A DNA stretch of 64,000 nucleotides from an uncultured Bacteroidaceae bacterium. Its GTDB lineage: Bacteria > Bacteroidota > Bacteroidia > Bacteroidales > Bacteroidaceae. The notes under the pieces were generated by a model. That model was not told where the DNA came from, did not search any database, and worked only from the letters and a program-made list of their open reading frames with translations. Position 1 is the first letter of the stretch; each line of letters starts with the position of its first letter. Where the stretch lies: contig CAZEKX010000001.1 of the NCBI GenBank assembly GCA_964512955.1, positions 7,659 to 71,658 of the forward strand, written 5' to 3'. The position numbers and the translations under genes are program-made. This document shows, in pieces, positions 12,037 to 55,330 of this stretch.

Positions 12037-13128
12037 TTAAATAAGTTTTCTCCAGAAATAATGCCATGTTTTGAATATAGGTGCCCACAAAACCTCCGAT
12101 GGGTACATACTTATAAAACGCATATTTCGTACGCTATTATAATATACTCTTTTTATAAGGTTGTTGTATTCTTTGTGTTTTATACGTTCGTCGTAGTGTC
12201 CGAAGTTTCCTGCAAGCATAATCTCGTTTAATAGGAATTCTCCATCACTAACAGATTGTTCGGTAAGCATGAATCTCTCTTCCAGTCCAAAAGCCTTTTG
12301 CATTACATACATTGTTGCTTTTGTAAAGCGTATCATGCCAAGTTCTTTTAGTGTTTTTAGCGTGTCTTTTTTCTCTCTCTCGCTGAATCCTTGCTTTAGA
12401 ACGTAGTAGTAATCCAGAAGTTGTCTTAATCCTATACCCTCGCTAAAAAGATGTCGATATATGTGTACAAGTATATATACTCTGTTAAATGCTAAAGAAG
12501 AGAATGTACCTTTTTTCTCGCAATTATCAATACTTATATAATTGTTAAATTCATCTTTTGAGAATGTTTTAAAGAAGTCCTGCAATTTTTTGTTTTTAAA
12601 ATAGTTATTCATCCATGTAGGAGTAAAATGTATCTCAATATCAGCCTCTTTTAGTATTGGAAAATCTACATGGTGATACACCGGTTTGCATTCAGGAAAG
12701 AATTTGCGTACATATTTTATTGTCTCTTTTTTATTACCATCCAACCATATATCGATATCACCCGATGTACGAAGTGATGGTTGCGGATATAAAAGTGCAA
12801 CTCCTTGTCCCTTCAATACAACATTTTTGAACCCTTCCCGACGAAATTTATCGGAGACTCTTACCGAGACATCGTTCAATCTCATATTGTCGCTCTTAAT
12901 GCGCTCACACAAAACAATCCATTGCATTAGAATGTTTTTGGGTGGACGCTGTGTTTCGTTTAGCCTCTCTAAGGCACAAAACAATATACCAATCAGTGTC
13001 TGTTTTTTTGCGGTATCGAATAGTTCTTTCCAACACTCTTCGTCAATATTCTCAGGCAGAGTGAACCCCGACCCAATGGCACAGCGTAACAAATTAAAAA
13101 ATATTTCGGTGGTGGAGTTTTTATCCAT
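12037..13128 (-). CDS. Uncharacterised nucleotidyltransferase-family protein (NTP_transf_5-like)
   Basis: Carries GDIDIW..., a nucleotidyltransferase-type acidic motif, and overall resembles Bacteroidales proteins annotated as nucleotidyltransferase family protein. The ATG at 13128 is preferred, because the ORF-track start at 13194 is a TTG. Confidence 0.5.
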   Translation of the reverse strand: MDKNSTTEIFFNLLRCAIGSGFTLPENIDEECWKELFDTAKKQTLIGILFCALERLNETQRPPKNILMQWIVLCERIKSDNMRLNDVSVRVSDKFRREGFKNVVLKGQGVALLYPQPSLRTSGDIDIWLDGNKKETIKYVRKFFPECKPVYHHVDFPILKEADIEIHFTPTWMNNYFKNKKLQDFFKTFSKDEFNNYISIDNCEKKGTFSSLAFNRVYILVHIYRHLFSEGIGLRQLLDYYYVLKQGFSEREKKDTLKTLKELGMIRFTKATMYVMQKAFGLEERFMLTEQSVSDGEFLLNEIMLAGNFGHYDERIKHKEYNNLIKRVYYNSVRNMRFISMYPSEVLWAPIFKTWHYFWRKLI

Positions 13129-13220
13129 AATGTAGTAGTGTTTGTTATAATTCTGCAACTCGAAATTTTTATTCTGTTGTGAACTTTGGAGCAAAGTTAA
13201 GAATTTAAAATAGTATATGG

Positions 13221-13241
13221 TTAGAAGTTGTTCAAATTTCT
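13221..13241 (+). repeat. 21-bp motif copy 1 (TTAGAAGTTGTTCAAATTTCT)
   Basis: Direct repeat of 14087-14107 and 34554-34574, with 20/21 identity to each. It lies 46 nt upstream of the knob-domain gene. Confidence 0.85.
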
Positions 13242-13286
13242 TCGCAAAGAGACAAATCTATAATAAGTAACGTAAATAGTTGTATC

Positions 13287-14090
13287 ATGAAAAAAAGAAG
13301 AGTAGTATTAAGTCGCTCGGGTGTTACATCGTCTGTTGTGTATCATTCGGTAAACAGTGCAAAAAAAGAGGATAAATCGAACAAGGTTTCTCGCTTTAGT
13401 GAAGTTCCCGATGATGAGCATTATCCTACTGAAAAACTTCTGTTCGATGAAATTTCCAAGGAGTGTAATCGTGCAATGGAGAGTGAGAGTAAAATTAGTA
13501 AGAGAGTGGACAACTGCCAAACGATATATAATGTTACCTGGGGTGCAAAAAGTAATATAAACAATTTTGTAGTTGCAGGTATATATTGTTTGTTGGGTGA
13601 ACGTTTGTCGACAGACGATGGTTTGCCAATAGATAATGCCGGTTCCGGACATAAAATATCGGCAAGGTTGAATGTGATAGACTCATCTACAACTAATAAA
13701 AGATGCTTGACTCAAATTCTTGAACTTTCGAATAATGCCGGTGGAGACTCAAATATATATATAAGAACAGGAATATCTGCTTCGGAGTCATCCTCTTCAT
13801 CGTTGGTCTGGTCATCCTGGCAGAAACTTCAAGGTATTGTAAATATACCGGCAACATTGTCTTACGACACATTTATTGACAATGGTATGTATAGTGGTGT
13901 GCATTTGCCTATGGGTGATATGTTTCTTCTTATTGTATTGAATAACTATGCTGTAGTTTCAAAAATGGGAAAAACCCGTTCTATTGCCCAAATTAAAATA
14001 TTGTTGAGTGTGAGTGGCGGTATAACCCTGCAAAAAAGGGTGGGGCAAGGAGATACAGATATTACTTGGGGAAATTGGTCGAATATTTAG
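13287..14090 (+). CDS. Phage tail-fibre-like protein with two tandem knob-type (pyocin-knob-like) domains
   Basis: The N-terminal SEVPDDEHYPTEKLLFDEI motif is common in Bacteroidales phage fibres. Two repeats follow of the pattern N..V.(A/N)G(I/M)Y ... L.V ... (T/A)QI ... R ... W..W, spanning NNFVVAGIYCLLGE...LVWSSWQKL and DTFIDNGMYSGVHL...ITWGNWSNI. There are no other phage genes nearby. Confidence 0.5.
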   Translation: MKKRRVVLSRSGVTSSVVYHSVNSAKKEDKSNKVSRFSEVPDDEHYPTEKLLFDEISKECNRAMESESKISKRVDNCQTIYNVTWGAKSNINNFVVAGIYCLLGERLSTDDGLPIDNAGSGHKISARLNVIDSSTTNKRCLTQILELSNNAGGDSNIYIRTGISASESSSSSLVWSSWQKLQGIVNIPATLSYDTFIDNGMYSGVHLPMGDMFLLIVLNNYAVVSKMGKTRSIAQIKILLSVSGGITLQKRVGQGDTDITWGNWSNI

Positions 14091-14107
14091 AAGTTGTTTA
14101 AATCTCT
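14087..14107 (+). repeat. 21-bp motif copy 2 (TTAGAAGTTGTTTAAATCTCT)
   Basis: Overlaps the TAG stop of the knob-domain gene. It is a direct repeat of 13221-13241. Confidence 0.85.
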
Positions 14108-14112
14108 ATAAA

Positions 14113-14147
14113 AATTAAGGGTTGCACACAAAGTGCAACCCTTAATT
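14113..14147. terminator. Bidirectional hairpin terminator between the knob gene and the GH85 gene
   Basis: aattaagggttgcac / acaaa / gtgcaacccttaatt, a 15-bp perfect stem. Confidence 0.75.
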
Positions 14148-34553: not shown

Positions 34554-34574
34554 TTAGAAGTTGTTTAAATTTCT
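34554..34574 (+). repeat. 21-bp motif copy 3 (TTAGAAGTTGTTTAAATTTCT)
   Basis: 20/21 identical to the copies at 13221 and 14087. Similarity to copy 2 extends about 12 nt further (A-rich, ...AAAAATTAA). It lies 4 nt upstream of the SDR start codon on the minus strand. Confidence 0.85.
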
Positions 34575-34847
34575 AAAAAATTAATTCTTAATAGAAGCCG
34601 AAATATTTCACCGTTTTTTATATTCAAAAATGTCTGTTTCTCTCTTTTTTAGTCCACTATACGCTCTTAAAATTAATAAACATCCTATTCTTGTTCTATA
34701 AAAACCTGGCGATATGAATTTAAACGGTTTCTTAATGTTCAAAATACACATTGTACTTAAACGAGTGCAAAATTACACTAAAATGAACAATAAAATAGGG
34801 TGCTTTTTGTCTCTCAAATGTTTAATTATGTAAAAAACTTCTTAATA

Positions 34848-43148: not shown

Positions 43149-45164
43149 CTATATACTTGCTTCGCTAACAATTTTAGTCCTTTTATTCCTGTATTTATCT
43201 GTTGTTACGCGAACAGGAAGAGGGTGATTGTAACATACCCAAACAAGTATTGCTGTTGCCATTACACGGTCGTCGTGGTTGCCCTCCACGGCACCCATCT
43301 CTTTGCCGTTCTCCTTTATCTCGTACAGGTCGAGTTCATACGTTGTTTCCAAACAGCGCTCTATATATAATTGGTCGCGCATGGCTTTTATGAGAAAGTT
43401 TATTACCATGGGTTTTGTCGATGAGTTTGTGTGGAACCCCCAGCGACGCGGGTGTCCCTGTCTTATCTCTTGTAGCGATGTACGACTGTACAGGTTGCTG
43501 TATCGTCCAGCAATCTCATTCAGAATATATTCGAAATTGTTGCCTTCGGTTCCTTCGGTCTCCAATGTGTTCGATTCTATAACCAAAAGAGCATTGTCGT
43601 AGGCACGTGCAATCTCCACAGCCTTCCATGCAAGTTTATCGTGTTCTATGTGTCCATGCCAACAGGCTACAATTTCGGGTACTCCTCCGTCGAGCATTGC
43701 AATGCGGTCGGCAACAACAATACATGAGTAGTCGGCTTTCTCCGATAATCCACCGACATCCACCGTTACTATGTAGCGGTCGCGAATATGTTGCTCGCAA
43801 TCGGGCATGAGCCATATCCATAAACTATTCTCGTTACAGTTTTCGCCGGCATGTGCCGGAACAAATCGGCATGTCGGTTCACTCTTGTCTTCATGCAATA
43901 TGCTTTTGTCGTTTGCCACAATGTCGCCTTTGAATATTGGTGGAACACACGTGGTACGTATATTATGTACGTAAGATATCTTGAAGACTCTGCGACCGGT
44001 ACTCTGAAATGCTTCGTTGGCTGTGGATGGAAACTCCGAAAAGAGACGCCACTCATCGGGTAGTTCGCGACGTTTATCCCTGTACCATGCTATAGCCTCT
44101 AATGTTGCACCAAGACGAAACAACTGCTGTTCGTAGTCGTTCATGCTCTCAATGAAACTGTTGTAATGGTTTTTGTCTATCTCTTTACTGTAAAGGTCGA
44201 TACTGTACCAAGGTATGAACACCGGAGTGAAGTTGTTGCGTCCCTCAACTGCCTCTATCCATGTGCGGTGAAAAAAGTTTCCCACTCCTTTTGCTGTCGA
44301 TTCAAGAACCTTCATTGTATATGGTCCGCTTGCAATGGAACCGAAGATGGATTGAACAAGGTCCTCGGGTTTGCGTCCTGCGGTGGACTTCCACAAACCA
44401 ACTTCGGTGAGGTGTGCCATGCTTATATCTTCGCTTCTCAATGAGTCGGGCTTTTGTGATGAACCAAGTGAGTAGCGACTGTTGCTCCAACTTATTACAC
44501 GTGTCTTTGTTATACCTTGATAGGGGCTGGTATAAATCTTTTTCCCCTCGGTTGCCCAACGTGGATAGTTCTTTATGACCTTTGCCAACATACCGGCTAC
44601 TATGGACGACTGTTTTTCTATATCTCCACATATTACACTGTTCCAGTTGTGCCTGTGTACAAGTTGTATCCATAACATATAAAGTTGTGTGAGTGTGGAA
44701 CCTCCCCATTGACGTGCTTTGCACAGAATTATATCTATTGGTCTTTGTTGCATGCGTAACTCCTCCATTGTTTGCAGATATTTACGTTGGGGACGGTTTA
44801 GTGTGAAAGGTATATCGCGTCCTCTACCTTTGTCCGATATTATTGCCATGCTTCTTGCCCAATATTCGAAATCGTGGCATATACGTGTTTTGCAAAACTG
44901 CAACCAAAGTGCAACGACATCGTGCTGAGTGGTTTTCTTACCACTCTCTTGCAGGTATTTCTCAACGCCACATTCTGCAAGTCGAATTATCTTCTCACTG
45001 TTGCACATGGTTATGGGAAGGTACATCTTCTCCAATGGAAAACCCTCTATATTAACCCATTTACGGGCGATGCTCGTTGAGCCCTCGCCCGTAATGGGGT
45101 TATAGTATGCCGAAATAGTCTTTAGACGTTCTATATTTGTACTTATAATCTCTGTTCTGTCCAT
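43149..45164 (-). CDS. terL: Terminase large subunit
   Basis: ATPase Walker A-like ILCKARQWGGSTL and Walker B/coupling ISMAHLTEVG. RNaseH-like nuclease with YIVTVDVGG, LLVIESNT and GNHDDRVMA. The ATG at 45164 is preferred, because the ORF-track start at 45200 is a TTG. Confidence 0.85.
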   Translation of the reverse strand: MDRTEIISTNIERLKTISAYYNPITGEGSTSIARKWVNIEGFPLEKMYLPITMCNSEKIIRLAECGVEKYLQESGKKTTQHDVVALWLQFCKTRICHDFEYWARSMAIISDKGRGRDIPFTLNRPQRKYLQTMEELRMQQRPIDIILCKARQWGGSTLTQLYMLWIQLVHRHNWNSVICGDIEKQSSIVAGMLAKVIKNYPRWATEGKKIYTSPYQGITKTRVISWSNSRYSLGSSQKPDSLRSEDISMAHLTEVGLWKSTAGRKPEDLVQSIFGSIASGPYTMKVLESTAKGVGNFFHRTWIEAVEGRNNFTPVFIPWYSIDLYSKEIDKNHYNSFIESMNDYEQQLFRLGATLEAIAWYRDKRRELPDEWRLFSEFPSTANEAFQSTGRRVFKISYVHNIRTTCVPPIFKGDIVANDKSILHEDKSEPTCRFVPAHAGENCNENSLWIWLMPDCEQHIRDRYIVTVDVGGLSEKADYSCIVVADRIAMLDGGVPEIVACWHGHIEHDKLAWKAVEIARAYDNALLVIESNTLETEGTEGNNFEYILNEIAGRYSNLYSRTSLQEIRQGHPRRWGFHTNSSTKPMVINFLIKAMRDQLYIERCLETTYELDLYEIKENGKEMGAVEGNHDDRVMATAILVWVCYNHPLPVRVTTDKYRNKRTKIVSEASI

Positions 45165-45186
45165 GTTTTGCGGTTTTACCTCTGTT

Positions 45187-45669
45187 TTATATACCTGCAA
45201 GATTGGTTGAACGACGTCTCACTTTCCTTTTGTTACAGAACATGGCGAATATGTCTTTTACTTTGCTTAACCAGATGCTGTGCGTTTGATAATATTCACC
45301 GGTTGATGCTGTTTGACGCAGATGCAACCAACTGTAAATTATTTCATTTACCAAGTAGTCTTTTATCCTTTGGCGTAGTATTGCAGTAAGTTCGTCCCTC
45401 TTCTCATTTTCATTCTCATCTTCGAATACAATGCTTACATACTCGTCGTTAACATTGAACCCTACCGATGCAAAACGCATGGCAATGCTTGCCGCAAGTT
45501 CGTTTACTGCTTTTTGCAAGAATATACCGAACAACTCTTTTTCGTCGGTGGAACTTTGAACAGTGTCGGCATCTGTATCCTTGCGTTTAATGGCTTCGCC
45601 CATGTAGTATGTCTTTAAATCTACCTCTTGTTGTAGTTCTTCACGCTTTATTAAAACAATTCTTTCCAT
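45187..45669 (-). CDS. Phage-island small protein, paralog family member 1 (possible head-completion/connector protein)
   Basis: 160 aa. It shares YY.GEA.K, I..Y(L/I)V......W(L/M) and a basic C-terminus with 45672-46184 and 54461-54877. Confidence 0.4.
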   Translation of the reverse strand: MERIVLIKREELQQEVDLKTYYMGEAIKRKDTDADTVQSSTDEKELFGIFLQKAVNELAASIAMRFASVGFNVNDEYVSIVFEDENENEKRDELTAILRQRIKDYLVNEIIYSWLHLRQTASTGEYYQTHSIWLSKVKDIFAMFCNKRKVRRRSTNLAGI

Positions 45670-45671
45670 TT

Positions 45672-46184
45672 CTACATGTTTATGAGTTTATCGTGGGAGT
45701 TGCTTTGTTGTATCTGTGGACGTTTACGCAGTGTAAACATCTCCCTTAAGTTGAAAATAATCTGTTGTACTTCACTTGCCGCAATCGCTGCCTCGTCGGG
45801 CTTGTGTTGTAACATCCATAATTGCAGTGTACGCATTACGATGTAGTTCTCTATCATGGTTTCTAACTGTGGCACTGCTTCGTCGGGGTAGTTCTGCGGT
45901 ATATCTACCAAGAATACTGTATTGTTTGTATCTTCAGTTGCATCGTTGCTTGCAGTTTCTCTACTGCATAGAGCAAAATACCTTGACAACATTCTTGAAA
46001 CTTCGCCGGTAGGGGTATTGATGTGGTCGATGATTTGTGTTTTGTCGTCGCTCGAGGCTTGTATGTTTGCTGCTGCTTTTTCCGGGAATCCCACCTGCTT
46101 ACGTGCCTCTCCTGTGTAGTAGCAATGTGTGTATATGCGTTGCAACACATTGTTAATGTTTAAAACTATTCTTCTCTTTTTCAT
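45672..46184 (-). CDS. Phage-island small protein, paralog family member 2
   Basis: 170 aa. IPQNYPDEAVPQLETMIENYIVMRTLQLWMLQHKPDEAA...LRKRPQ aligns with MPVNWKNSQLTNLCMQCIAYVKQSLVARWLDFVKPDSAM...LRKKPD of 54461-54877. Confidence 0.4.
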   Translation of the reverse strand: MKKRRIVLNINNVLQRIYTHCYYTGEARKQVGFPEKAAANIQASSDDKTQIIDHINTPTGEVSRMLSRYFALCSRETASNDATEDTNNTVFLVDIPQNYPDEAVPQLETMIENYIVMRTLQLWMLQHKPDEAAIAASEVQQIIFNLREMFTLRKRPQIQQSNSHDKLINM

Positions 46185-46234
46185 TATATATATTTATATG
46201 TAATTTAAAATTCAAAAACTTCTTAAACTGTTGC

Positions 46235-46651
46235 TCAGACAACTGCAATCTTTCTCTCTTTAATAGATTTATAAATAAGTCCGCGGAATGTACCCTCGTC
46301 GATGTAAAAAGATGGTGCAGGCTCTTCTATTATACTACCTAAAATTGTGTAATTGTCGCATACATCTTTAATTCTTTTCCTGTAGCGTTCGTATATCTCT
46401 TTGTACATTGATATCTTATTGCTGTTTGCTATTGGCAGACGCTTTTTTCTCATTAAGAGCGATATGAAACGACGAGCATTCTCGTAACTTATGTAGAACC
46501 GGGGTGCGGTAGATTTTACAGCCTCATGTATCACTTCGCTAATTGTTGTCTTAGGGTCTGCCTTGCGCATCTTCTTAAGGGTGTCGAAGAAAATTTCTAG
46601 AACAGCCTGCTTACGCATTTCGCTAACTTTTTTCTCTTCAATCTTTGTCAT
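46235..46651 (-). CDS. Hypothetical basic helical protein (possible small terminase or DNA-binding regulator)
   Basis: 138 aa and the first gene of the terL-containing operon. It is Lys/Arg-rich and helical, with no motif I can name. Confidence 0.25.
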   Translation of the reverse strand: MTKIEEKKVSEMRKQAVLEIFFDTLKKMRKADPKTTISEVIHEAVKSTAPRFYISYENARRFISLLMRKKRLPIANSNKISMYKEIYERYRKRIKDVCDNYTILGSIIEEPAPSFYIDEGTFRGLIYKSIKERKIAVV

Positions 46652-46811
46652 AATAGGTTTTGTTTTTTCTTACAAAAATATAGCCAAAAATGGCTGAATG
46701 GTTGCGGATTTATGATAATCTTTTCAACAGTTTTTGAATTTGATGTAATAATTCTGCAACCTTAAACTTTGCTCATGCCCCCATCTTTGCCAACGAAAAA
46801 ACAAAATAATC

Positions 46812-47600
46812 ATGAATAAGAATTTTACAAACCAAGGACAAGAGGAGATGCAGACAGTGCAGACACCGTCTAGCGAATTTCCTCAACAGAGTAGTGTGGG
46901 ACAGGTTCCCGTAAATCCTTATGAGGATTTCGAAACCGAATTGCAAGAGATGTTTGGTGAGGGCTTCAGACTCGATGATGAGTCTTCGCAGGAGTTGTTA
47001 TTGAGACATCTTAGAATTAACAGAGAACAGAACGATAAGTTGGCAGATGCCTTGGAACGCGACCCGCGTCTTGCACAAATGTTGTCGGATGTGGTAGAGG
47101 GAAAGAGAAATGCCCATGCCTCTATGGCACGTTACTTTGGACGCACTCTTATGGATATGGATGAGGACAGCCCCGAATACGAAGAGATGATGATGGCAGA
47201 CGAGGAGCGCCGCGAAGAGGTCTTTCGACTTGCCGAAAATCGTCGTGAGTATGAGGCTAATTTAGAGATAAGCAGGCCCATAATAGAAACATTCTGCCGC
47301 GACAGAGGGTATGACCCTTCCGACTTTATGGAGATGGTGTGGGAGAAGGTTGTATTCCCAATACTTTCGGGTAAATATTCCTATGAGGTGTGTACTGCAC
47401 TCGACCACTCGCTAACCTATGAACAGGATGTGGAAGATGCTTTTGCTGCCGGTGATGTCAAAGGACGTAACACAAATATTCAACGAATGAAAGAGGATAT
47501 CGGCGATGGATTGCCAAAAGGACTTAGCAGTGTGGCACCCGATACCGCTCCTGTAAAACGTAGAACAAACAGTCTTATAGAGGCTGCTCTGAAAGCATAA
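46812..47600 (+). CDS. Putative scaffolding protein
   Basis: 262 aa, strongly acidic and helical (EEMMMADEERREEVFRLAENRREYEANLE), immediately upstream of the capsid gene. Confidence 0.4.
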   Translation: MNKNFTNQGQEEMQTVQTPSSEFPQQSSVGQVPVNPYEDFETELQEMFGEGFRLDDESSQELLLRHLRINREQNDKLADALERDPRLAQMLSDVVEGKRNAHASMARYFGRTLMDMDEDSPEYEEMMMADEERREEVFRLAENRREYEANLEISRPIIETFCRDRGYDPSDFMEMVWEKVVFPILSGKYSYEVCTALDHSLTYEQDVEDAFAAGDVKGRNTNIQRMKEDIGDGLPKGLSSVAPDTAPVKRRTNSLIEAALKA

Positions 47601-47636
47601 CTTACAATATTTATTAATTATTTTAATCCTTTTTTT

Positions 47637-49265
47637 ATGAAGAAATTTTTGAATTTTTTGAAAGAAAATCCGTTGTTCGTTTTTCTTTCGTTGGTATCTG
47701 TAGCACTTCTCTTGTCGGGTGGTGAAGAGGGTGGCTTAATGTTGGCAACAGTGAATGTTATTGCTCCCGGCACACCGCGTGCATCGCGTGGAATAGCAGG
47801 TTTGCCATCCCATGGCTATGGCGATGCGACAACTGTTTCAAATGCATCGGAACTTGGTAATGATTTTCTGGAACCCGATTTTGATGAGGATATTGTTAAA
47901 ATTGCAAGCGACGAGAGTGTTATCGATACTATAAAAAGACGTGTCGACAGACAGGTTGCGGTTAACTCCTTTGAGGTGAACCATTACATGATTGACGAAA
48001 AACGATCCAAGGCTTACACCAATCAAACATGCTCCGGAGCAGGTTCTGCACGAGGAGAGATTCCTTTCTCTACCGTTGGTGAAAGAAAAATATTCCAGGA
48101 GTATTTTACTGCAATATGTAAAGGCGTGAATGGATACGACCCTACAGGCCAGATAGAACTTCCCGGTGTCGACCTCATGATATTCTTTGTTGGAAAAAAT
48201 CCTACAACAGAGGCTCCTATCGCTATGGCTGTCAACGGACCTAAGATAAATCCTACCGATGACTATTGTGTCCTTCCTGAAATTCCTGCAGGTACCGAGG
48301 TAATATTACTCTCGTCGGCAGCCTATGAGACACAGAAATTTATTGCTCCAAGTACTGTCGTTCCGGTTCCCGAACGTGTATATCTGCAAAAACAACTTTG
48401 TAATAATATTGTCAGCGACTATTTTAAAGCACAAAGAAAGAAGGTTGAGTTTGGCGAGGCACAGATTGCCGAAGCGGTTGTACGTCAGTTCCGTTTGGAG
48501 AGTTGTCGTACAGCGTGGGTGGGACAGCCCGGTAAATTCAAAGTACAGGCTATGGATGCCTCTATGGGTTACCAGTGGGACTACTTCTCCAAAGGTTTGC
48601 GTTGGCAGTTTAAACGTCAGTACGACCTCTCTTCTACAATAACATTTGCTGATTTAATAAACCTGTCAATGGTGAAGTTTACCGGATATAATTGCAGCAA
48701 GAAGGCTGTATGGCTCTTAGGACGTCAATTGCTGAACGATATACAAAAAATAGATATCACTTTGCATAAAAACATATCTATGTCGGGTAGCAGTGTGTTT
48801 GGATTGAAATGTACCCGCATACAAACAGTGTTCGGTGAAATTAATCTTGTACACGATCCCACACTCGATGCTCTTGGCTACTCAAACTGTGGAGGTCTTA
48901 TAGATGAGAACGGCTTGGTACGTTACTTTATGAAAAATGAAGATACCAAAACAGAAAATGTCGATGGCGAGGAGGCTAAGCGTCAGGTGGTAATGACTAT
49001 CGACTGTTTGTGTCTTAAAGGATACAGCCATATATGGGTTAACGGCTCGGCAGAAAAGAGTGATATTCCCGGTGCATCGCATGTAACAAGTTCGGCTACA
49101 TTACCCGAATCGCCAAATGCGAACGATGTGGTGGTTCTTACTGCCGATGTCAATCACTCGGTAAACGGAGTGTCGCAGTTGTGGTTCCCTGCTGGCAGTG
49201 TGGTAACATATAACGGCAATACATGGGTGGAGTATACAGGCGAAATACTTACTGTTGGTGAATAA
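47637..49265 (+). CDS. Major capsid protein (HK97-fold, SU10/DUF5309-like)
   Basis: The pattern FLEPDFDEDIVKIASDESVIDTIKRRVDRQVAVNSFEVNHYMIDE matches the N-arm/E-loop signature of this capsid family (i..i.p..tP....i......v.s...eW.e.d). Size, position after the scaffold gene and a hairpin after the gene all fit. An alternative start at 47739 (MLATVNV) is possible. Confidence 0.6.
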   Translation: MKKFLNFLKENPLFVFLSLVSVALLLSGGEEGGLMLATVNVIAPGTPRASRGIAGLPSHGYGDATTVSNASELGNDFLEPDFDEDIVKIASDESVIDTIKRRVDRQVAVNSFEVNHYMIDEKRSKAYTNQTCSGAGSARGEIPFSTVGERKIFQEYFTAICKGVNGYDPTGQIELPGVDLMIFFVGKNPTTEAPIAMAVNGPKINPTDDYCVLPEIPAGTEVILLSSAAYETQKFIAPSTVVPVPERVYLQKQLCNNIVSDYFKAQRKKVEFGEAQIAEAVVRQFRLESCRTAWVGQPGKFKVQAMDASMGYQWDYFSKGLRWQFKRQYDLSSTITFADLINLSMVKFTGYNCSKKAVWLLGRQLLNDIQKIDITLHKNISMSGSSVFGLKCTRIQTVFGEINLVHDPTLDALGYSNCGGLIDENGLVRYFMKNEDTKTENVDGEEAKRQVVMTIDCLCLKGYSHIWVNGSAEKSDIPGASHVTSSATLPESPNANDVVVLTADVNHSVNGVSQLWFPAGSVVTYNGNTWVEYTGEILTVGE

Positions 49266-49279
49266 TATATAATTCGCAT

Positions 49280-49301
49280 GGTGTGCCGTTGTCGGCACAC
49301 C
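49280..49301 (+). terminator. GC-rich hairpin after the capsid gene (partial terminator or RNA-stabilising element)
   Basis: ggtgtgccg / ttgt / cggcacacc. There is no strong T-run, so read-through into downstream genes is likely. Confidence 0.45.
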
Positions 49302-49319
49302 TGCATAAATTAAAATATC

Positions 49320-49742
49320 ATGAAAAAAATAGTTACTTACGAAATACACGGACAGGTTGAGAGAAACAGTTATTTCCGTGTGGGAAAGGCTTTGATACGT
49401 ATTGAGTTCAAGGGTGGTTCAATAAATTCGGCAGAATGTATACCGGCACGATTTATTACCGATAACCCTCTGATGCAAAAGGCAATTGAGGAAAGTGCCG
49501 CATTCCGTTGCGGCGAAATAAAGAAAGGTAAAGTGGATATTATTGAGGATGTAAACGAGTGTGCTGCTTCATCTGAAAACGCAACAGAGGTTACAGTTTT
49601 CTCCGATGTTAAGAATATGCAGCAGGCACGTGCTGTTTTAATGGCTGAACCTTTCTTGTGCCAATTGTCGGAGTTACAAACAAAAGCGGCTGTTAAGGCT
49701 ATGGCCGAGGAGAAAGGTATTACATTTCCCAACTGGTTATGA
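49320..49742 (+). CDS. Hypothetical virion-associated protein (beta-rich N-terminal domain plus a HeH/SAP-like C-terminal helix pair)
   Basis: 140 aa. The C-terminus VKNMQQARAVLMAE...LQTKAAVKAMAEEKGITFPNW resembles short HeH-type modules common in phage head proteins. Confidence 0.3.
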   Translation: MKKIVTYEIHGQVERNSYFRVGKALIRIEFKGGSINSAECIPARFITDNPLMQKAIEESAAFRCGEIKKGKVDIIEDVNECAASSENATEVTVFSDVKNMQQARAVLMAEPFLCQLSELQTKAAVKAMAEEKGITFPNWL

Positions 49743-50392
49743 TAACAACAGAGAATTTAAAGGCAAAGGTGCGCTTTTTGCTAAATGAGGCGAATGATGA
49801 CAGCGATGTAACGTTACTTGCAGCAGATACACGAAAAATAGACGATTACATAGAGTCGTTGCTTCCCGAAGCAGTGCTTTTTGTACAGATGAACAGTGAA
49901 CGTTGCGGTGTTAATCCTAAAAGTATAACCATTGCCAAAGAGAAAATAACCACTGCCTCCGATGGCAGTGGATATTTTCCTCTGCCCGACGATTTTGTAC
50001 GTCTTGTGCAGTTAAACATGACAGGATGGAAACGTCCGTGCAAAATACTCTATCCCGACAATTCGTCTATGGCATTGGCGCAAGGTAACTTTTATACAAG
50101 AGCCGGGTGGTGCAAACCTGTTGCTGTTCTGGGTTATACTGCCGATGGCATGAAAGCACTATATTTCTACTCTTTGCCTATTGGGGTATCGCCTAATGTT
50201 GATAGTTTTATATATGAAGCACTGTATGTCCCCGATAATGGTTTATGTGGCAACGATGATGTCCTGCACGAGGCTGTAGCGTACAGGTGTGCAGCACTTG
50301 TCTTTAATGTGTTTGATAAACACGATAGCGCCGCTTCAATGCTATCTATTGCGGCATCGTTGTGTAATGGTAATAGAAACAATGAAAAATAG
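49739..50392 (+). CDS. Hypothetical protein (possible gp6-like head-tail adaptor)
   Basis: 217 aa with an ATGA start/stop overlap with the upstream gene. The N-terminus LKAKVRFLLNEANDDSDVTLL...IDDYIESLLPEAV resembles adaptor N-termini. Confidence 0.3.
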   Translation: MITTENLKAKVRFLLNEANDDSDVTLLAADTRKIDDYIESLLPEAVLFVQMNSERCGVNPKSITIAKEKITTASDGSGYFPLPDDFVRLVQLNMTGWKRPCKILYPDNSSMALAQGNFYTRAGWCKPVAVLGYTADGMKALYFYSLPIGVSPNVDSFIYEALYVPDNGLCGNDDVLHEAVAYRCAALVFNVFDKHDSAASMLSIAASLCNGNRNNEK

Positions 50393-50397
50393 GAATT

Positions 50398-50679
50398 ATG
50401 GCTGTTAAGAACTTGACAATATCCAAGAATGGAATTTTCTGGGAGACAGAACCTCTGCAATGTGTAGGTGGCGATATAAGGGTTAGAGTACATAAAAACG
50501 GACTCTATCCGGTGGAGATCTTAGTGAGTATAGATGGCGAAGAGGAGTATTTGCGACACGATGACTTTGGTTTCGACGAATATAAATGCGAGATAACAAT
50601 AGAAGGAGTTATGCCGGAGCAGTTCATTATGTTGCGCTCACGTAGCGAACTGACATTGGTAAAAACATTGGAAATGTAG
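50398..50679 (+). CDS. Hypothetical small beta-rich protein
   Basis: 93 aa intact ORF, tightly spaced within the operon. Confidence 0.3.
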   Translation: MAVKNLTISKNGIFWETEPLQCVGGDIRVRVHKNGLYPVEILVSIDGEEEYLRHDDFGFDEYKCEITIEGVMPEQFIMLRSRSELTLVKTLEM

Positions 50680-50686
50680 AGCCGGT

Positions 50687-51157
50687 ATGGACGAAGTGAA
50701 ATTTTTTGTGGCATCGTTCTTTGCAAATTTTGCAAGTATACTGTTCCCGATAAAGAACGATATATTCGGGCTTATAATGCTATTTACTCTGAACTTTGTA
50801 ATAGGTTTGCTTGCCGACCTTAGCAACAGACGAGAATGGAGTTTTAAAAAAGCATTTCGTCTATTCAGAGATGCGGCAATATACTTTGTATTGGTAGCCT
50901 CTATCTATCTGCTAGGACATATAAAAGGTGAAGATGCTACCGCAGTGCAGTGTGTTTCGTTCCTTATATATATTGCAATATATTTCTATGGAACCAATAT
51001 ACTGCGTAATGCACGCATGATAACCCAACACGGAAGTACTTTATTTCGTATTCTCGATTTTCTTTACTATCTCCTTAGTCTGCGTATTGTGGAACGGTTC
51101 AGTTATTTGAAAGGCTATGTCAATGAATATGAGAAAGAGAATAAAAGCATACTTTAG
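50687..51157 (+). CDS. Holin-like membrane protein
   Basis: 156 aa with about 4 TM helices. The segment FTLNFVIGLLADLSNRREWSFKKAFRLFRD resembles phage holin family 4-type proteins. It lies directly upstream of a spanin-like gene. Confidence 0.45.
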   Translation: MDEVKFFVASFFANFASILFPIKNDIFGLIMLFTLNFVIGLLADLSNRREWSFKKAFRLFRDAAIYFVLVASIYLLGHIKGEDATAVQCVSFLIYIAIYFYGTNILRNARMITQHGSTLFRILDFLYYLLSLRIVERFSYLKGYVNEYEKENKSIL

Positions 51158-51539
51158 TCTGTTACTTTTTATATCTGTTGCGTCGTGTGCTGTAACACGT
51201 TCGGGTGAAAGTACGATACGTACACTGTATAATAGTTCCGACAAGCATACTCGCGACAGTATTTTTATTCGCGACAGTATAATTGTGTATACAAAATCGG
51301 ATACGGTATATAAGGATCATTGGCACACTCTCTATCGCGACCGTATACAAACAGATACACTTCTCATAACCGATACGCTCTATTGTGAAAAAACTATTGA
51401 AGAACCTGTGAAATGTAATGAGGATGTTTCTGCAAAAAGTGTATTCCGCTTTGCCTTTTTGATTTTTTTGTTCATTGTTCTGTGGAAGTGTGGTCTGCTC
51501 GATGTGATTGCAAAACTGTTAAAACGTCTTGTTAATTGA
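51129..51539 (+). CDS. Unimolecular-spanin-like protein (N-terminal lipoprotein signal plus C-terminal TM anchor)
   Basis: MRKRIKAYFSLLLFISVASC contains a lipobox (VASC). The C-terminal TM is FRFAFLIFLFIVLWKCGLL. At 136 aa it has the same architecture as T1 gp11-type u-spanins. It overlaps the holin 3' end, and alternative ATGs lie at 51117 and 51123. Confidence 0.4.
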   Translation: MRKRIKAYFSLLLFISVASCAVTRSGESTIRTLYNSSDKHTRDSIFIRDSIIVYTKSDTVYKDHWHTLYRDRIQTDTLLITDTLYCEKTIEEPVKCNEDVSAKSVFRFAFLIFLFIVLWKCGLLDVIAKLLKRLVN

Positions 51540-51559
51540 TTTTATTAATAATATATATT

Positions 51560-54454
51560 ATGCAAAAGAGTTTTTCTTTTCGTGGCATTGTACGTAATAC
51601 CGATAATTTGTTTGCTCGCGAGGGTGAATGTATGGAACTTGTAAATATGAGAATCTGTAATGGCTCACTGGAACCAATTGCTCCACCTTTTGAGGTGAAA
51701 AGTTTGCCATGTTCCTATTCTGCTGTATATTTCCACAGTGAAACTTCGGTATATATGTGTATAACCAAAGATAAAGGAATGGTGCATCTCTACGATATAT
51801 CTTTCTCTCCATTGTCTTCGGCTGTATCTCTGTATGGTATCCCTCTGCTCTCTACCGAAGCGGTAGATGTTTGTCGTATAGAATTTTCGGGTAATATAGC
51901 CTGTTTACTTACATCCAAAAGCACTTTATATGCAATCTATGACAATGGTGTATATAAGTGGCTTGGTGCGTCCCCTAAAATGCCGACATTGACGTTTACC
52001 GTCGATTCCATTATTCATAAAGTTACTACTGACGATGAATATTATCAGGGGTTTACACGCGATAACGAAAAAGTTGCTCTCTACTGGAATAATGCATCAA
52101 AAGGTTATTTCGATGAGTGCGTGGCAAAACTTAATGAACAGGGATATTATGTCGATAGGGCACTTTTTCGTTTTGCTTTCAGGCTCTTCGATGGTAGTTA
52201 TGCCTATTATTCTCCGGTTTATTATGTAGAGGACAAGAATAGCATAAACGGCTTGTCGCGCGATAAAGGTAATTTCGTATTTACAAGGGTGAATGAATCG
52301 GATACAATAGGATTATCGAAATACAATGTAATGGTGCAGGGTTTTAAACCAACATTTCATTTCTCGGACTTCAATTTAAAAGAGTGGGAGAATATAATTG
52401 TATCGGTCGACCTCTTTACTACAGGTTCCATAATGGGGCATAAGATTGTAAATAACGGTACAGAAGTATCTTCTCGTGTCGATAATGTCAACACATCTTC
52501 GTCCTATGGATTCGATTATTACGACAATAAAACAAATCTGGAAATATTTAACGACACCGCTACTGCATCATCCTTTTATAAGATTGCCGAATATAAATTA
52601 AATGGGGTGTTGGTCGATAATGAAGAGAATGTCTCATCCGAAAAACTCGTATTGTCGGACTCTTTGCCTGCCGATAGTGGAAATCTCAACGACTGTTCTG
52701 CCCAATACAGTTATATGTTCAACGGTTGTCTTCACTTGGCATCTTTACGCGAGAAACTATTTAAAGGGTACAATGGCGATTGCTTTCTCCCATCGTCACT
52801 CACTCCTAAATATATAACGGCAACTGTATATACAGAACTGAATACCACAAATGGAACATCTGTTGTAAAAAGGGAATATGATGGAGATTTTCTCATTGGA
52901 GAAACCGATGCAGGTTATTGCATATCGCCTTACATATCCTATCCCGATATGCGTGCTGTTAAGATGACATTTTCGCTATTGATAGATGGGACGTATTACA
53001 ATAAAACTTTTTCACTAATACAGCATAAAATGCTGAATATGGCATACTATCTTAATACAAAAGATAGAGGGTTGACACTTACGGTAGATATAACAAATTC
53101 TTCTGTAACATCGGTGCATGTATACTACGAGGAAATTTTAAAATCCTATTTCTCATATAAAACAGGAAGTTACAATATTGTTTATTCAACCTCTACCGGA
53201 TGGATGTATGGCGACAAGGTTTTTACCTTAAATACTAAGGAGGGTACGGGAGAACGCTATCCGGCTATAACGTGGAGAGGAACACCAACCGACGGTGATG
53301 TCATTGTTATATCCATAGCCCAAAGTGCCGACGACGACAAGAAAGGTACAATAGAGAATATTGCAATAGATTCAACTTGGGAAAGCAGTACATCGAAAGT
53401 CGATATCTCGGAGATGAATACGGTTGAGGTTCGTAAAAATATACTCAAGGTCTCTTCTGTCGATAATCCTTTTTTGTTTCCTGCTATACAAACCTATGCT
53501 CCCACAAATGAAGAAATAATAGGTGTGTGCAGTAATACCGTCGCTCTTTCACAAGGACAGTTTGGACAACATCCGCTCTACATCTTTTGCAGTAATGGAA
53601 TATGGGCAATGTCGGTCGATACATCGGGTACACTTGCTTATAATGGTTCTTATCCAATGTCGCGCGAGGTTTGTACAAATGCCAAATCTATACGTGGTAT
53701 CGATGCCGGAGTGATATTTGCAACAGCAAAAGGTGTTATGTTAATGCATGGTGGCAGCATAAAACAATTATCGGCTTCAATGGATGCCGATTTTCATCCA
53801 TTGAAGTATCTATCTTCGACAAACATCTTCAGCAGAGTGGCTGCAATTGTCTCATTAAATAATTTCTCGAACAATGAGACATTTTACAGTTATTTACAAC
53901 AGGCAACCATAGGTTTCAATTACCCCAAGCGTGAAATTATAGTCTCTAATTCGGGATACCCGTATAGTTATCTCTGTTCTTTGGAAAACGGAGAGTGGAG
54001 CAAAATATCATATAATTTCGATTTTGTATTGAATAGTTATCCCAACCTATGGTGCATAAAAAGTGATCTTAACAAAACTATTATACTTACTCCAAACAAT
54101 TATGTTTCTAGTGAAAACTCGGTGTTGCTGATATCGCGACCTTTATTGTGGGGTGGTAAACTATATAAAAGAGTGCTGCAGATGATGCTGCATGCTACTG
54201 TTAAGCCTGCAAAAGGCGATAATACTTTCAATGGATTGGCTTGTTACCTGTTATGCAGTAACGATGGAGTGAACTTTAAACTTGTTACAGGCAATGAACG
54301 TAGAGTGGAGTTTTGCGACATGGTATTCCCTTATATACCAACTCAATCTTATCGATATTTTGCCATAGTACTTGTGGGAAATATATCTACCGAAAGTAAA
54401 ATTAATGCTGTTGAGATGTATATCGATTCGGCATGGAATAATCGTTTACGTTAA
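51560..54454 (+). CDS. Large (964 aa) protein of unknown function; portal or tail/receptor-binding candidate
   Basis: Longest ORF of the island, with no motif I can assign. The ATG at 51560 is preferred, because 51536 is a TTG. Confidence 0.3.
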   Translation: MQKSFSFRGIVRNTDNLFAREGECMELVNMRICNGSLEPIAPPFEVKSLPCSYSAVYFHSETSVYMCITKDKGMVHLYDISFSPLSSAVSLYGIPLLSTEAVDVCRIEFSGNIACLLTSKSTLYAIYDNGVYKWLGASPKMPTLTFTVDSIIHKVTTDDEYYQGFTRDNEKVALYWNNASKGYFDECVAKLNEQGYYVDRALFRFAFRLFDGSYAYYSPVYYVEDKNSINGLSRDKGNFVFTRVNESDTIGLSKYNVMVQGFKPTFHFSDFNLKEWENIIVSVDLFTTGSIMGHKIVNNGTEVSSRVDNVNTSSSYGFDYYDNKTNLEIFNDTATASSFYKIAEYKLNGVLVDNEENVSSEKLVLSDSLPADSGNLNDCSAQYSYMFNGCLHLASLREKLFKGYNGDCFLPSSLTPKYITATVYTELNTTNGTSVVKREYDGDFLIGETDAGYCISPYISYPDMRAVKMTFSLLIDGTYYNKTFSLIQHKMLNMAYYLNTKDRGLTLTVDITNSSVTSVHVYYEEILKSYFSYKTGSYNIVYSTSTGWMYGDKVFTLNTKEGTGERYPAITWRGTPTDGDVIVISIAQSADDDKKGTIENIAIDSTWESSTSKVDISEMNTVEVRKNILKVSSVDNPFLFPAIQTYAPTNEEIIGVCSNTVALSQGQFGQHPLYIFCSNGIWAMSVDTSGTLAYNGSYPMSREVCTNAKSIRGIDAGVIFATAKGVMLMHGGSIKQLSASMDADFHPLKYLSSTNIFSRVAAIVSLNNFSNNETFYSYLQQATIGFNYPKREIIVSNSGYPYSYLCSLENGEWSKISYNFDFVLNSYPNLWCIKSDLNKTIILTPNNYVSSENSVLLISRPLLWGGKLYKRVLQMMLHATVKPAKGDNTFNGLACYLLCSNDGVNFKLVTGNERRVEFCDMVFPYIPTQSYRYFAIVLVGNISTESKINAVEMYIDSAWNNRLR

Positions 54455-54460
54455 AAGAAT

Positions 54461-54877
54461 ATGGAAATAACAATAAACAAACAGGATGCAATAGATAATT
54501 TGCACAGGGTAACAGGAAATTTAGGGCTTAAACTTGGTGCTCCGGAATTGGTGGCATCTACCGAAGAGGATACAGAGAGAATAACTCCGTTATGGAATGG
54601 TGCAACAACTGAATTGTTACAGTTATTACAGCCTTATGCCAATATGAACTATAACACTGTGGGTGTTACATACTCTTTACAAATGCCTGTCAATTGGAAA
54701 AACTCTCAATTAACCAATTTGTGTATGCAGTGTATTGCCTATGTAAAGCAGTCGTTGGTGGCGCGTTGGCTCGACTTTGTGAAACCCGACAGTGCAATGC
54801 TCTACAGAACGCTTAACCGGGATATAGCCGATGCAGTCTTGCATATCCTTGCTCTGAGAAAGAAACCCGATAGATAA
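54461..54877 (+). CDS. Phage-island small protein, paralog family member 3
   Basis: 138 aa. See the alignment with 45672-46184. Its stop codon sits inside the shared terminator hairpin. Confidence 0.4.
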   Translation: MEITINKQDAIDNLHRVTGNLGLKLGAPELVASTEEDTERITPLWNGATTELLQLLQPYANMNYNTVGVTYSLQMPVNWKNSQLTNLCMQCIAYVKQSLVARWLDFVKPDSAMLYRTLNRDIADAVLHILALRKKPDR

Positions 54878-54905
54878 AAAGCCGCATAAGCGGCTTTTTA
54901 TCTAT
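54870..54905. terminator. Bidirectional hairpin terminator shared by the phage island and the DUF1573 gene
   Basis: tagataaaaagccgc / ataa / gcggctttttatcta, a 15-bp perfect stem. Both convergent stop codons are embedded in the arms. Confidence 0.8.
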
Positions 54906-55330
54906 TCATTAACTTCAATAATTTCAGTCTCTTGTTCCTGCTTGGGTAACATCTTTCCGGTAAGGTAGAGTTTTACCATCTCTGTATTGGAATTGTTGTG
55001 TACCGTAACTCTTTTTCTTATTTTCCCGGGAGCATTACGTCGACCATCATATTTAACGGTAATTGTATCACTCTCTCCGGGTTTAATGGCATCTGTATTA
55101 TGTGATGCAATGGTACATCCGCACGATGTGAATACCTGATGTATATAAAGGTCGGCATCACCGGTGTTGGTAAACTTATAATGACATGTGATAACAGCAG
55201 AATCCGCAGGGAATGTTCCCATGTTGTACACAAGTTTCTCAAACTCAATTTTTGCTTTTCCTCGGTTTTGACTATTCACAACAGGAGTCAAAACAAATAA
55301 TGTAAAAAGTAGTATTATAAAATTTTTCAT
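54902..55330 (-). CDS. DUF1573 domain-containing secreted protein
   Basis: Signal peptide, followed by the typical DUF1573 pattern (FEKLVYNMGTF...FKFTNTGDADLYI...SCGCT...PGESDTITVKYD). Confidence 0.8.
   Translation of the reverse strand: MKNFIILLFTLFVLTPVVNSQNRGKAKIEFEKLVYNMGTFPADSAVITCHYKFTNTGDADLYIHQVFTSCGCTIASHNTDAIKPGESDTITVKYDGRRNAPGKIRKRVTVHNNSNTEMVKLYLTGKMLPKQEQETEIIEVNE

Follow-up and report, generated by a model that had tools for sequence, protein, structure and literature searches.

A candidate off-cluster tail-fibre gene of a phage-derived particle system in uncultured Bacteroidaceae

A stretch of 64,000 nucleotides from an uncultured Bacteroidaceae bacterium (the window; C1:7659-71658 in a host genome, label G000, of 2.14 Mb, 149 contigs and 40% G+C) contains, at 13287-14090 on the plus strand, an open reading frame (ORF) of 267 amino acids (aa). 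The evidence collected here supports the assignment of this ORF as the gene of a short phage-type tail fibre, as judged from its sequence. At 43149-54877 of the same window lies a phage-derived island with genes for TerL, an SU10-type capsid protein, an adaptor, holin-like and spanin-like proteins and a 972-aa protein. With moderate confidence, we consider the 267-aa protein to be an off-cluster fibre of a domesticated, phage-derived short-tailed particle system, which would be made up of this island and of a portal block on contig C86. The fibre gene would be transcribed from the same special type of promoter as the head/packaging and portal blocks, and the shared cis-element suggests that it is co-regulated with them. 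Its product would trimerise, attach to the particle and bind a receptor, and it would fill the recognition role in a system whose island has no fibre gene after the adaptor gene.

A short fibre-type protein and its homologues

Residues 1-47 of the protein hold MKKRRVVLSRSG and the fibre motif KEDKSNKV..PDDEHYPTEKLL. A fibre-type motif at the N-terminus had been noticed in the initial annotation of this DNA, and it proved to be real: the pattern KEDKSNKV...PD(D/x)xHYP(S/T)EKL is present in fibre-like ORFs of 47 IMG/VR viral contigs, which range from 65 to 2434 aa and are mostly large, with several hundred residues. The motif also occurs in series, as in a 783-aa frame at G059:C29:10343-11002 with six tandem KEDKxNKV..YPSEKL copies at a period of 33-37 aa. 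In an AlphaFold model of the 267-aa protein (AF2 monomer, pLDDT 71), residues 1-47 are disordered, residues 47-75 form a helix and residues 80-267 form a beta-rich domain. The first segment is probably disordered or flexible in the protein, and the helix is probably a trimerising coiled coil. The beta-rich head had been described as two knob-like repeats. It is instead one conserved domain of ~185 aa, and what is left of the two repeats is a weak likeness between its halves (hhalign E 5e-5, 43 columns).

Direct searches with the 267-aa protein gave no Pfam match above threshold (best Hyd_WA, E 0.011), only a weak match to phrog_3971 among the PHROGs, no relative in a sequence profile search of the PDB, no tblastn match in 50,697 phage records, and only seven close relatives in a word-indexed search. 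A profile search of 1.84 billion representatives retrieved 566 clusters, 373 of them at E <=1e-30. In members of this family the ~185-aa domain was detected one to three times, and its usual place is close to the N-terminus of a protein of 290-1800 aa. Of 68 members examined, 12 matched phrog_3971 and others matched tail-protein, tail-fibre, virion-structural and head-fibre PHROGs; some also have SGNH/GDSL esterase, GDPD, phosphoesterase or BspA-LRR domains. At the level of fold, Foldseek found no match for the model in the PDB at E <=0.001. Eight matches were obtained at this threshold from BFVD, with TM-scores of 0.22-0.36, and the named proteins among those eight or just below them are tail-fibre, baseplate (wedge) and minor-tail proteins.

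The earlier call of the gene as fibre-like is thus supported by these tail-protein and tail-fibre matches and by homologues that sit in fibre positions. In the same genome, a prophage remnant on contig C36 (G000:C36:10000-21297, L027) has a 497-aa paralogue with two copies of the domain, followed by genes for a holin, an endolysin, a spanin-like product and an integrase; the spanin-like product is a lipoprotein, and the structural genes of the remnant are unrelated to the island. An IMG/VR contig (L132) presents, in this order, a tape-measure-like ORF, a 1163-aa protein, a 757-aa protein with the domain, and holin-like and amidase-like genes, these roles being read from the sequence and not tested against families. 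A second IMG/VR contig (L112) has the gene order of the island, with a 936-aa motif-bearing ORF after the head genes. In genome G019, a cluster on contig C6 encodes a TerL 58% and a capsid protein (MCP) 70% identical to those of the island, and has an adaptor gene as well. There, the adaptor gene overlaps at its end with the gene of a 608-aa domain protein, after which come endolysin and spanin genes; the cluster (G019:C6:26000-45999, L081) also encodes a 199-aa protein. The C-terminal part of the 608-aa protein is common to the fibre-like protein encoded next to an NTP_transf_5 nucleotidyltransferase gene in G019 (E 1e-46). This cluster is possibly a true prophage related to the ancestor of the island. 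In G005, G057, G072 and G075, homologues of the island-type holin-like and spanin-like genes are immediately preceded by genes with the N-terminal module; in two of these genomes, G072 and G075, the module-bearing genes diverge from the homologue of the gene for the 972-aa protein. The terminase-capsid island of G005 and G057 was checked, and it is without those lysis genes.

Fibres and receptor-binding proteins of tailed phages have a conserved N-terminal attachment part and exchangeable distal domains. The window protein follows this plan with its KEDKSNKV..YPSEKL motif, its predicted coiled-coil segment and its beta-rich distal domain, and its homologues are placed in tail modules just ahead of lysis genes. 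Its N-terminal module also evolves more slowly than its distal domain: against the orthologue in L012, dN/dS is 0.10 for the N-terminal module, 0.25 for the domain and 0.20 overall, with dS near saturation, while the neighbouring genes have values of 0.02-0.13. The gene is intact and under purifying selection. On the other hand, the protein differs from typical fibres by its 267 aa and single globular domain, as most family members are much longer and have the domain near the N-terminus. It also differs in that the gene is located outside any phage genome and that no solved fibre structure was matched.

A predicted promoter type shared with particle genes

The predicted promoter of the fibre gene (13147-13188, plus strand) is composed of ATAATTCTGCAAC (13147-13159), a spacer of 21 nt and the -7-type box GAACTTTG (13181-13188). 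The consensus of the -7-type box in Bacteroidota is TAnnTTTG, and the architecture seen here can be written as ATAATTCTGCAAC-N21-nnAnnTTTG. The same arrangement is predicted for the head operon of the island, where ATAATTCTGCAAC, 21 nt and CATCTTTG at 46748-46789 (plus strand) precede the gene at 46812, with its ATG 22 nt downstream. A variant with one mismatch, AAATCCGCAAC-N24-TTTG (46673-46711, minus strand), is positioned upstream of the operon that runs from 46651 to the terminase gene; in G075 the terminase operon has an exact-pattern counterpart upstream. A sigma-70 promoter scan was uninformative in this phylum.

The element is rare. A 17-mer of it occurs three times in the genome, and the exact 12-mer ATAATTCTGCAA six times, as compared with less than one occurrence estimated by chance from base composition; four of these six copies are at the identical 21-nt spacing from a -7-type box. 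The pattern TCTGCAA[CA]-N25-TTTG has eight matches genome-wide, versus 0-3 at thirteen other spacings. Half of the eight precede the fibre gene, the head operon, the C86 portal block and a gene for a 918-aa fibre-like protein on contig C7. The C86 block encodes, in order, proteins of 196, 179 and 1491 aa and a portal protein (phrog_156, E 4e-26); it occupies G000:C86:976-7928 (L146), and the end of the contig falls inside the portal gene. The C7 protein (G000:C7:17364-20187, L147) has a metallophosphoesterase domain in addition to a match to phrog_7158. Other matches of the pattern are found before genes for an 82-aa protein and a 191-aa protein with a retropepsin-like DTGA motif (G000:C125:1127-2073) and before a gene for a 128-aa protein (G000:C43:2597-3136). 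Another promoter of the special type, at C7:14263, has no obvious downstream gene.

In relatives, the promoter architecture is kept at the fibre-gene orthologues of L012, L131 and L156, and in a variant form in G019. The head operons of G019, G005, G057, G072 and G075 have it as well. In G057 it is also present at the portal block and at the 972-aa homologue, and in G075 at the fibre gene and the 972-aa gene, which are divergent. The genome-wide scan showed no such element in the C36 remnant, and none was found in the scanned part of the G019:C6 locus. The special promoter therefore marks the host-fixed gene set and not the related prophages.

The particle genes themselves are widespread. Of the 61 genomes of the genus, 60 have the TerL of the island; identity of the best copy is 73-81% in 58 of them and 44% in G045, and an extra copy occurs only in G019. 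The main particle cluster is thus host-inherited and conserved in the genus. The position after the adaptor gene, which is the slot of the fibre gene in related clusters, holds only an ORF of 93 aa and no fibre gene in G000 and G019; in the window this ORF lies at 50398-50679, between the adaptor gene at 49739-50392 and the holin-like gene. The C36 remnant was considered as a missing half of the island and rejected: no blastp match to the island was found at 1e-4 elsewhere in the genome, except for a weak match of an edge ORF at 54902-55330.

Between the fibre gene and its divergent neighbour, an NTP_transf_5 (PF14907) nucleotidyltransferase gene at 12040-13128 on the minus strand, there is a palindrome, AACTTTG-GAG-CAAAGTT (13182-13199). 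It sets two -7-type boxes face to face, GAACTTTG for the fibre gene and, on the minus strand, TAACTTTG for the NTP_transf_5 gene, and would serve as a promoter in both directions. In alignments the palindrome block is invariant or nearly so across five loci.

Off-cluster fibre or orphan gene

The initial annotation had suggested that the gene might be a dispersed component of the head island, in the manner of the gene transfer agent of Rhodobacter capsulatus (RcGTA). This suggestion has gained substantially from the shared rare promoter architecture and from the homologues in fibre positions, the support being purely computational. RcGTA is encoded by at least five loci, and its off-cluster recognition genes are the fastest-evolving ones, with homologues in prophages; in related phage, homologues of the recognition genes adjoin structural genes, and rcc00171, a gene of tail-fibre type, is located beside polysaccharide genes (PMC5026251). 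Receptor-binding roles are ascribed to the off-cluster genes rcc00171 and the head spikes rcc01079/rcc01080 (PMC10218006). In the present case, too, the recognition gene would be far from the main head cluster and is faster-evolving than the cluster, its homologues are found in prophage regions and at the fibre position of related phages, and its relatives lie beside polysaccharide-synthesis genes. The differences are also clear. The organism belongs to the phylum Bacteroidota and the protein families are unrelated; the frame is podovirus-like, with its SU10-type capsid protein and adaptor, whereas that of RcGTA is siphovirus-like; and the fibre gene is restricted to one small clade within the cluster-bearing genus, in a system known from genes alone.

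Several points weigh against an off-cluster fibre. The N-terminal module is found in 7-8 of 61 genomes and the beta-domain in 33 of 61, as opposed to 60 of 61 for the island terminase, and therefore the particle genes are conserved without the fibre gene in most species. The fibre gene is confined to a small clade, and the repeated presence of NTP_transf_5 and polysaccharide genes next to such genes may indicate another role. The structure model is of moderate quality at its pLDDT of 71, and no solved fold was matched. The promoter assignment is one of sequence pattern only; three or four of the eight pattern matches precede genes without known relation to the particle, and most NTP-adjacent fibre-like genes in other species are without the special promoter within the stretches that were fetched.

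The last of these points also speaks for a rival explanation, which we regard as rather unlikely: the fibre-like gene would be an orphan, left over from an old prophage and serving the host in a way that has nothing to do with the island. It would have been kept because it works with the neighbouring NTP_transf_5 or polysaccharide genes, and its product could, for example, modify or recognise surface glycans of its own cell or block phage receptors. The likeness of promoters would then stem from a shared phage ancestry or reflect a general class of host promoters. This explanation is favoured by the distribution of the fibre gene, which does not track that of the island, by the conserved palindrome between the NTP_transf_5 and fibre genes, and by at least 16 congeners in which a beta-domain gene is no more than 5 kb from the NTP_transf_5 orthologue, often at the margin of glycosyltransferase/Wzz-type loci. 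Against it, the orthologue in G019 keeps both promoter and locus though no NTP_transf_5 gene adjoins, and the few occurrences of the promoter element are concentrated on particle genes. The 267-aa protein has, by eye, no evident signal peptide, lipobox or T9SS sorting domain, and it gave no Por_Secre_tail match; its exit from the cell would therefore need lysis or a particle. A defence role also finds no support in PADLOC, which matched neither this protein nor the NTP_transf_5 gene nor a 73-aa ORF. As an observation on these neighbourhoods across the genus, a gene for a fibre-like protein of 346-1135 aa repeatedly accompanies an NTP_transf_5 gene that borders a polysaccharide locus (L030, L035, L038, L040-L044, L048, L133-L137), and several of the pairs have a small sigma-70-like gene in between.

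For an off-cluster fibre, which we prefer, the gene is a concrete candidate for the missing host-recognition part of the particle, placed apart from the cluster as in RcGTA. A wider proposal can be made only tentatively, namely that ATAATTCTGCAAC-N21-(-7 box) marks a dedicated regulon, and that this regulon amounts to the entire 'genome', spread over several loci, of a domesticated short-tailed particle system in Bacteroidaceae, GTA-like with lock-and-key linkage and the first in its phylum. If so, the regulon would include the head operon, the terminase operon, the portal block, the 972-aa protein, the lysis genes and interchangeable off-cluster fibre genes. As the fibre genes would often be parked by surface-polysaccharide loci, the specificity of the particle and the capsule type of its producer would be co-inherited. 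No description of a gene-transfer-agent-like system in Bacteroidota was found in the literature searched. The practical value of a shared short cis-element is that any genome can be searched with it for the full set of genes, and that their regulator can be looked for.

The locus and its 21-bp repeats

The fibre gene resides at a stable chromosomal locus. It is convergent with a GH85 gene, whose 1271-aa product has a T9SS sorting domain, and a terminator hairpin of 15 pairs (14113-14147), kept in relatives, lies between the two. The order HlyIII-(NTP)-fibre gene-GH85 is kept, and the locus is syntenic in five species-level lineages. The fibre proteins of the relatives are 68% (L012 and L156), 62% (L131), 54% (L015) and 49% (G019) identical to that of the window. 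The gene is thus a fixed chromosomal gene, vertically inherited in a small clade of uncultured ruminant-gut Bacteroidaceae; the relatives come from uncultured Bacteroidaceae of the sheep and water-buffalo gut. An Rfam scan of the window returned tRNA only. The statement that there are no other phage genes within 29 kb is not contradicted by the ORFs examined, although the interval as a whole is not annotated.

Two 21-mers on the plus strand bracket the fibre gene at exactly the coordinates first reported. Copy 1, TTAGAAGTTGTTCAAATTTCT (13221-13241), follows the predicted promoter and precedes the ATG; it lies in what is presumed to be the 5' untranslated region (UTR). Copy 2, TTAGAAGTTGTTTAAATCTCT (14087-14107), overlaps the stop codon, which is TAG, and has TA on either side. 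The two are identical at 19 of 21 positions. Such 21-mers are dispersed in the genome, with 30 copies at <=3 mismatches (one for the reversed control) and 59 at <=4 mismatches. In a stricter scan with a single consensus, all 28 copies were intergenic, though the genome is ~90% coding, and 27 of them were in regions that contain a gene start. The sequences flanking the copies are unrelated to each other. The 21-mer was found in 20 of 24 congeners, with 1 to 55 copies each and none for the reversed controls, and it is nearly absent from other families of the order.

The origin of the two copies at the fibre gene is apparent from the orthologous loci. In all relatives examined (L012/L156, L131, L015 and G019) the gene is at the same locus without either 21-mer, while a second contig of the same species (L130) has both. 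In the alignments each 21-mer is a separate clean indel, of ~20 bp upstream and exactly 21 bp downstream. The downstream insertion reads ATT|TAGAAGTTGTTTAAATCTCTA|TAA in the window and ATT|TAA in L012; the 21-bp insert lies immediately ahead of the ancestral TAA and provides the TAG now used as stop, and therefore the length of the protein is unchanged.

Short inverted sequences, TAGAAnTT...AAnTTCTA, form the ends of the 21-mer, which is found as single copies, in closely spaced inverted pairs and at both ends of units of ~180 bp. One complete unit of this kind, similar to a miniature inverted-repeat transposable element (MITE), is present in the window at 34554-34735, with the 21-mer as both terminal inverted repeats; further short units bounded by inverted copies are those at G000 C90 and C20. 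Inverted pairs ~145-175 bp apart are found in six other genomes of the genus, including G007, G013, G014, G015 and G022. Moreover, a variant, TTAGAAGCTGTTTGAATTTTA followed by TTGAAAAATATTTTTATGTAAACGTATAATTTA, opens a repeat at no fewer than 24 places, mostly at contig ends, the interior of which is unassembled. This repeat could be an insertion sequence (IS) or a different multicopy unit; its incomplete assembly meant that no transposase partner of the 21-mer could be identified. The best explanation is that the 21-mers at the fibre gene are independent insertions of a genus-specific mobile repeat, a terminal inverted repeat of a MITE/IS family. As to target sites, the 3' copy is flanked by TA, and TA is at the right end in only about half of the copies. 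The 21-mer is like MITEs and repetitive extragenic palindromic (REP) sequences in being short, intergenic, multicopy and lineage-restricted, and it differs from them in that it inserts as clean single units of 20-21 bp. To our knowledge, such a unit is shorter than any known MITE.

The intergenic positions, nearly always with a gene start, the short inverted ends and the location of one copy in the presumed 5' UTR would also suit a binding site for a regulatory protein, such as an operator, selected at the fibre gene so that two copies control its expression. We judge this to be improbable: the genomic copies follow no rule of orientation or distance relative to gene starts or -7 boxes, congeners have from 0 to 55 of them, the 21-mer is found at the ends of both MITE-like units and a multicopy repeat, and orthologues of the fibre gene do without it. 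A function as promoter was rejected as well, since only a single copy has a geometry of -33/-7 type and the position relative to starts is variable.

The initial annotation had offered, as one option, a single-gene mobile cassette inserted into a 21-bp leader motif that was thereby duplicated, and in its favour the transcription unit has direct, near-identical copies precisely at its 5' limit and its 3' limit; this option is refuted and is now extremely improbable, because the 21-mer is dispersed genus-wide with unrelated flanks, each copy at the gene is an indel of its own, and no recombinase is encoded among the adjacent ORFs (the neighbours are NTP_transf_5 and GH85). In relatives, where an empty site with a single motif had been anticipated, the gene is present and both 21-mers are absent, and the genome-wide search did not uphold a tie of the 21-mer to cassette ends. 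A neat pair of flanking repeats can thus be a coincidence.

A further argument for a tie to the island had been drawn from similarities with the island gene at 46184, that is, the starts MKKRRVVL and MKKRRIVL and a shared upstream element, TTAGAAGTT. The element near gene 46184 turned out to be a degenerate copy of the same dispersed repeat, and it does not bear the weight that had been placed on it. The two starts are the only ones of the form MKK[KR]R among 2463 ORFs of >=100 aa, but MKKRRIVL is not conserved in the orthologues of G019, G005 and G057; because the orthologues of the island gene start differently, the match was rejected as evidence. The first ~10 codons of the island gene (45672-46184) differ from those of all orthologues examined and the rest aligns. 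In this species the 5' end of the gene, upstream of which lies the degenerate 21-mer, has apparently been exchanged.

A mobile repeat of very small size spreads through the intergenic DNA of the genus, and at the fibre gene it has replaced the stop codon with the protein unaltered. Contig ends with the longer repeat include sites on G000 C13, C42, C54, C71, C87, C95, C104, C115, C8 and C51. The MITE-like element at 34554-34735 is inserted between two minus-strand genes, 4 nt off a start codon, and its inner sequence recurs at G000 C20, C90, C23 and C21.

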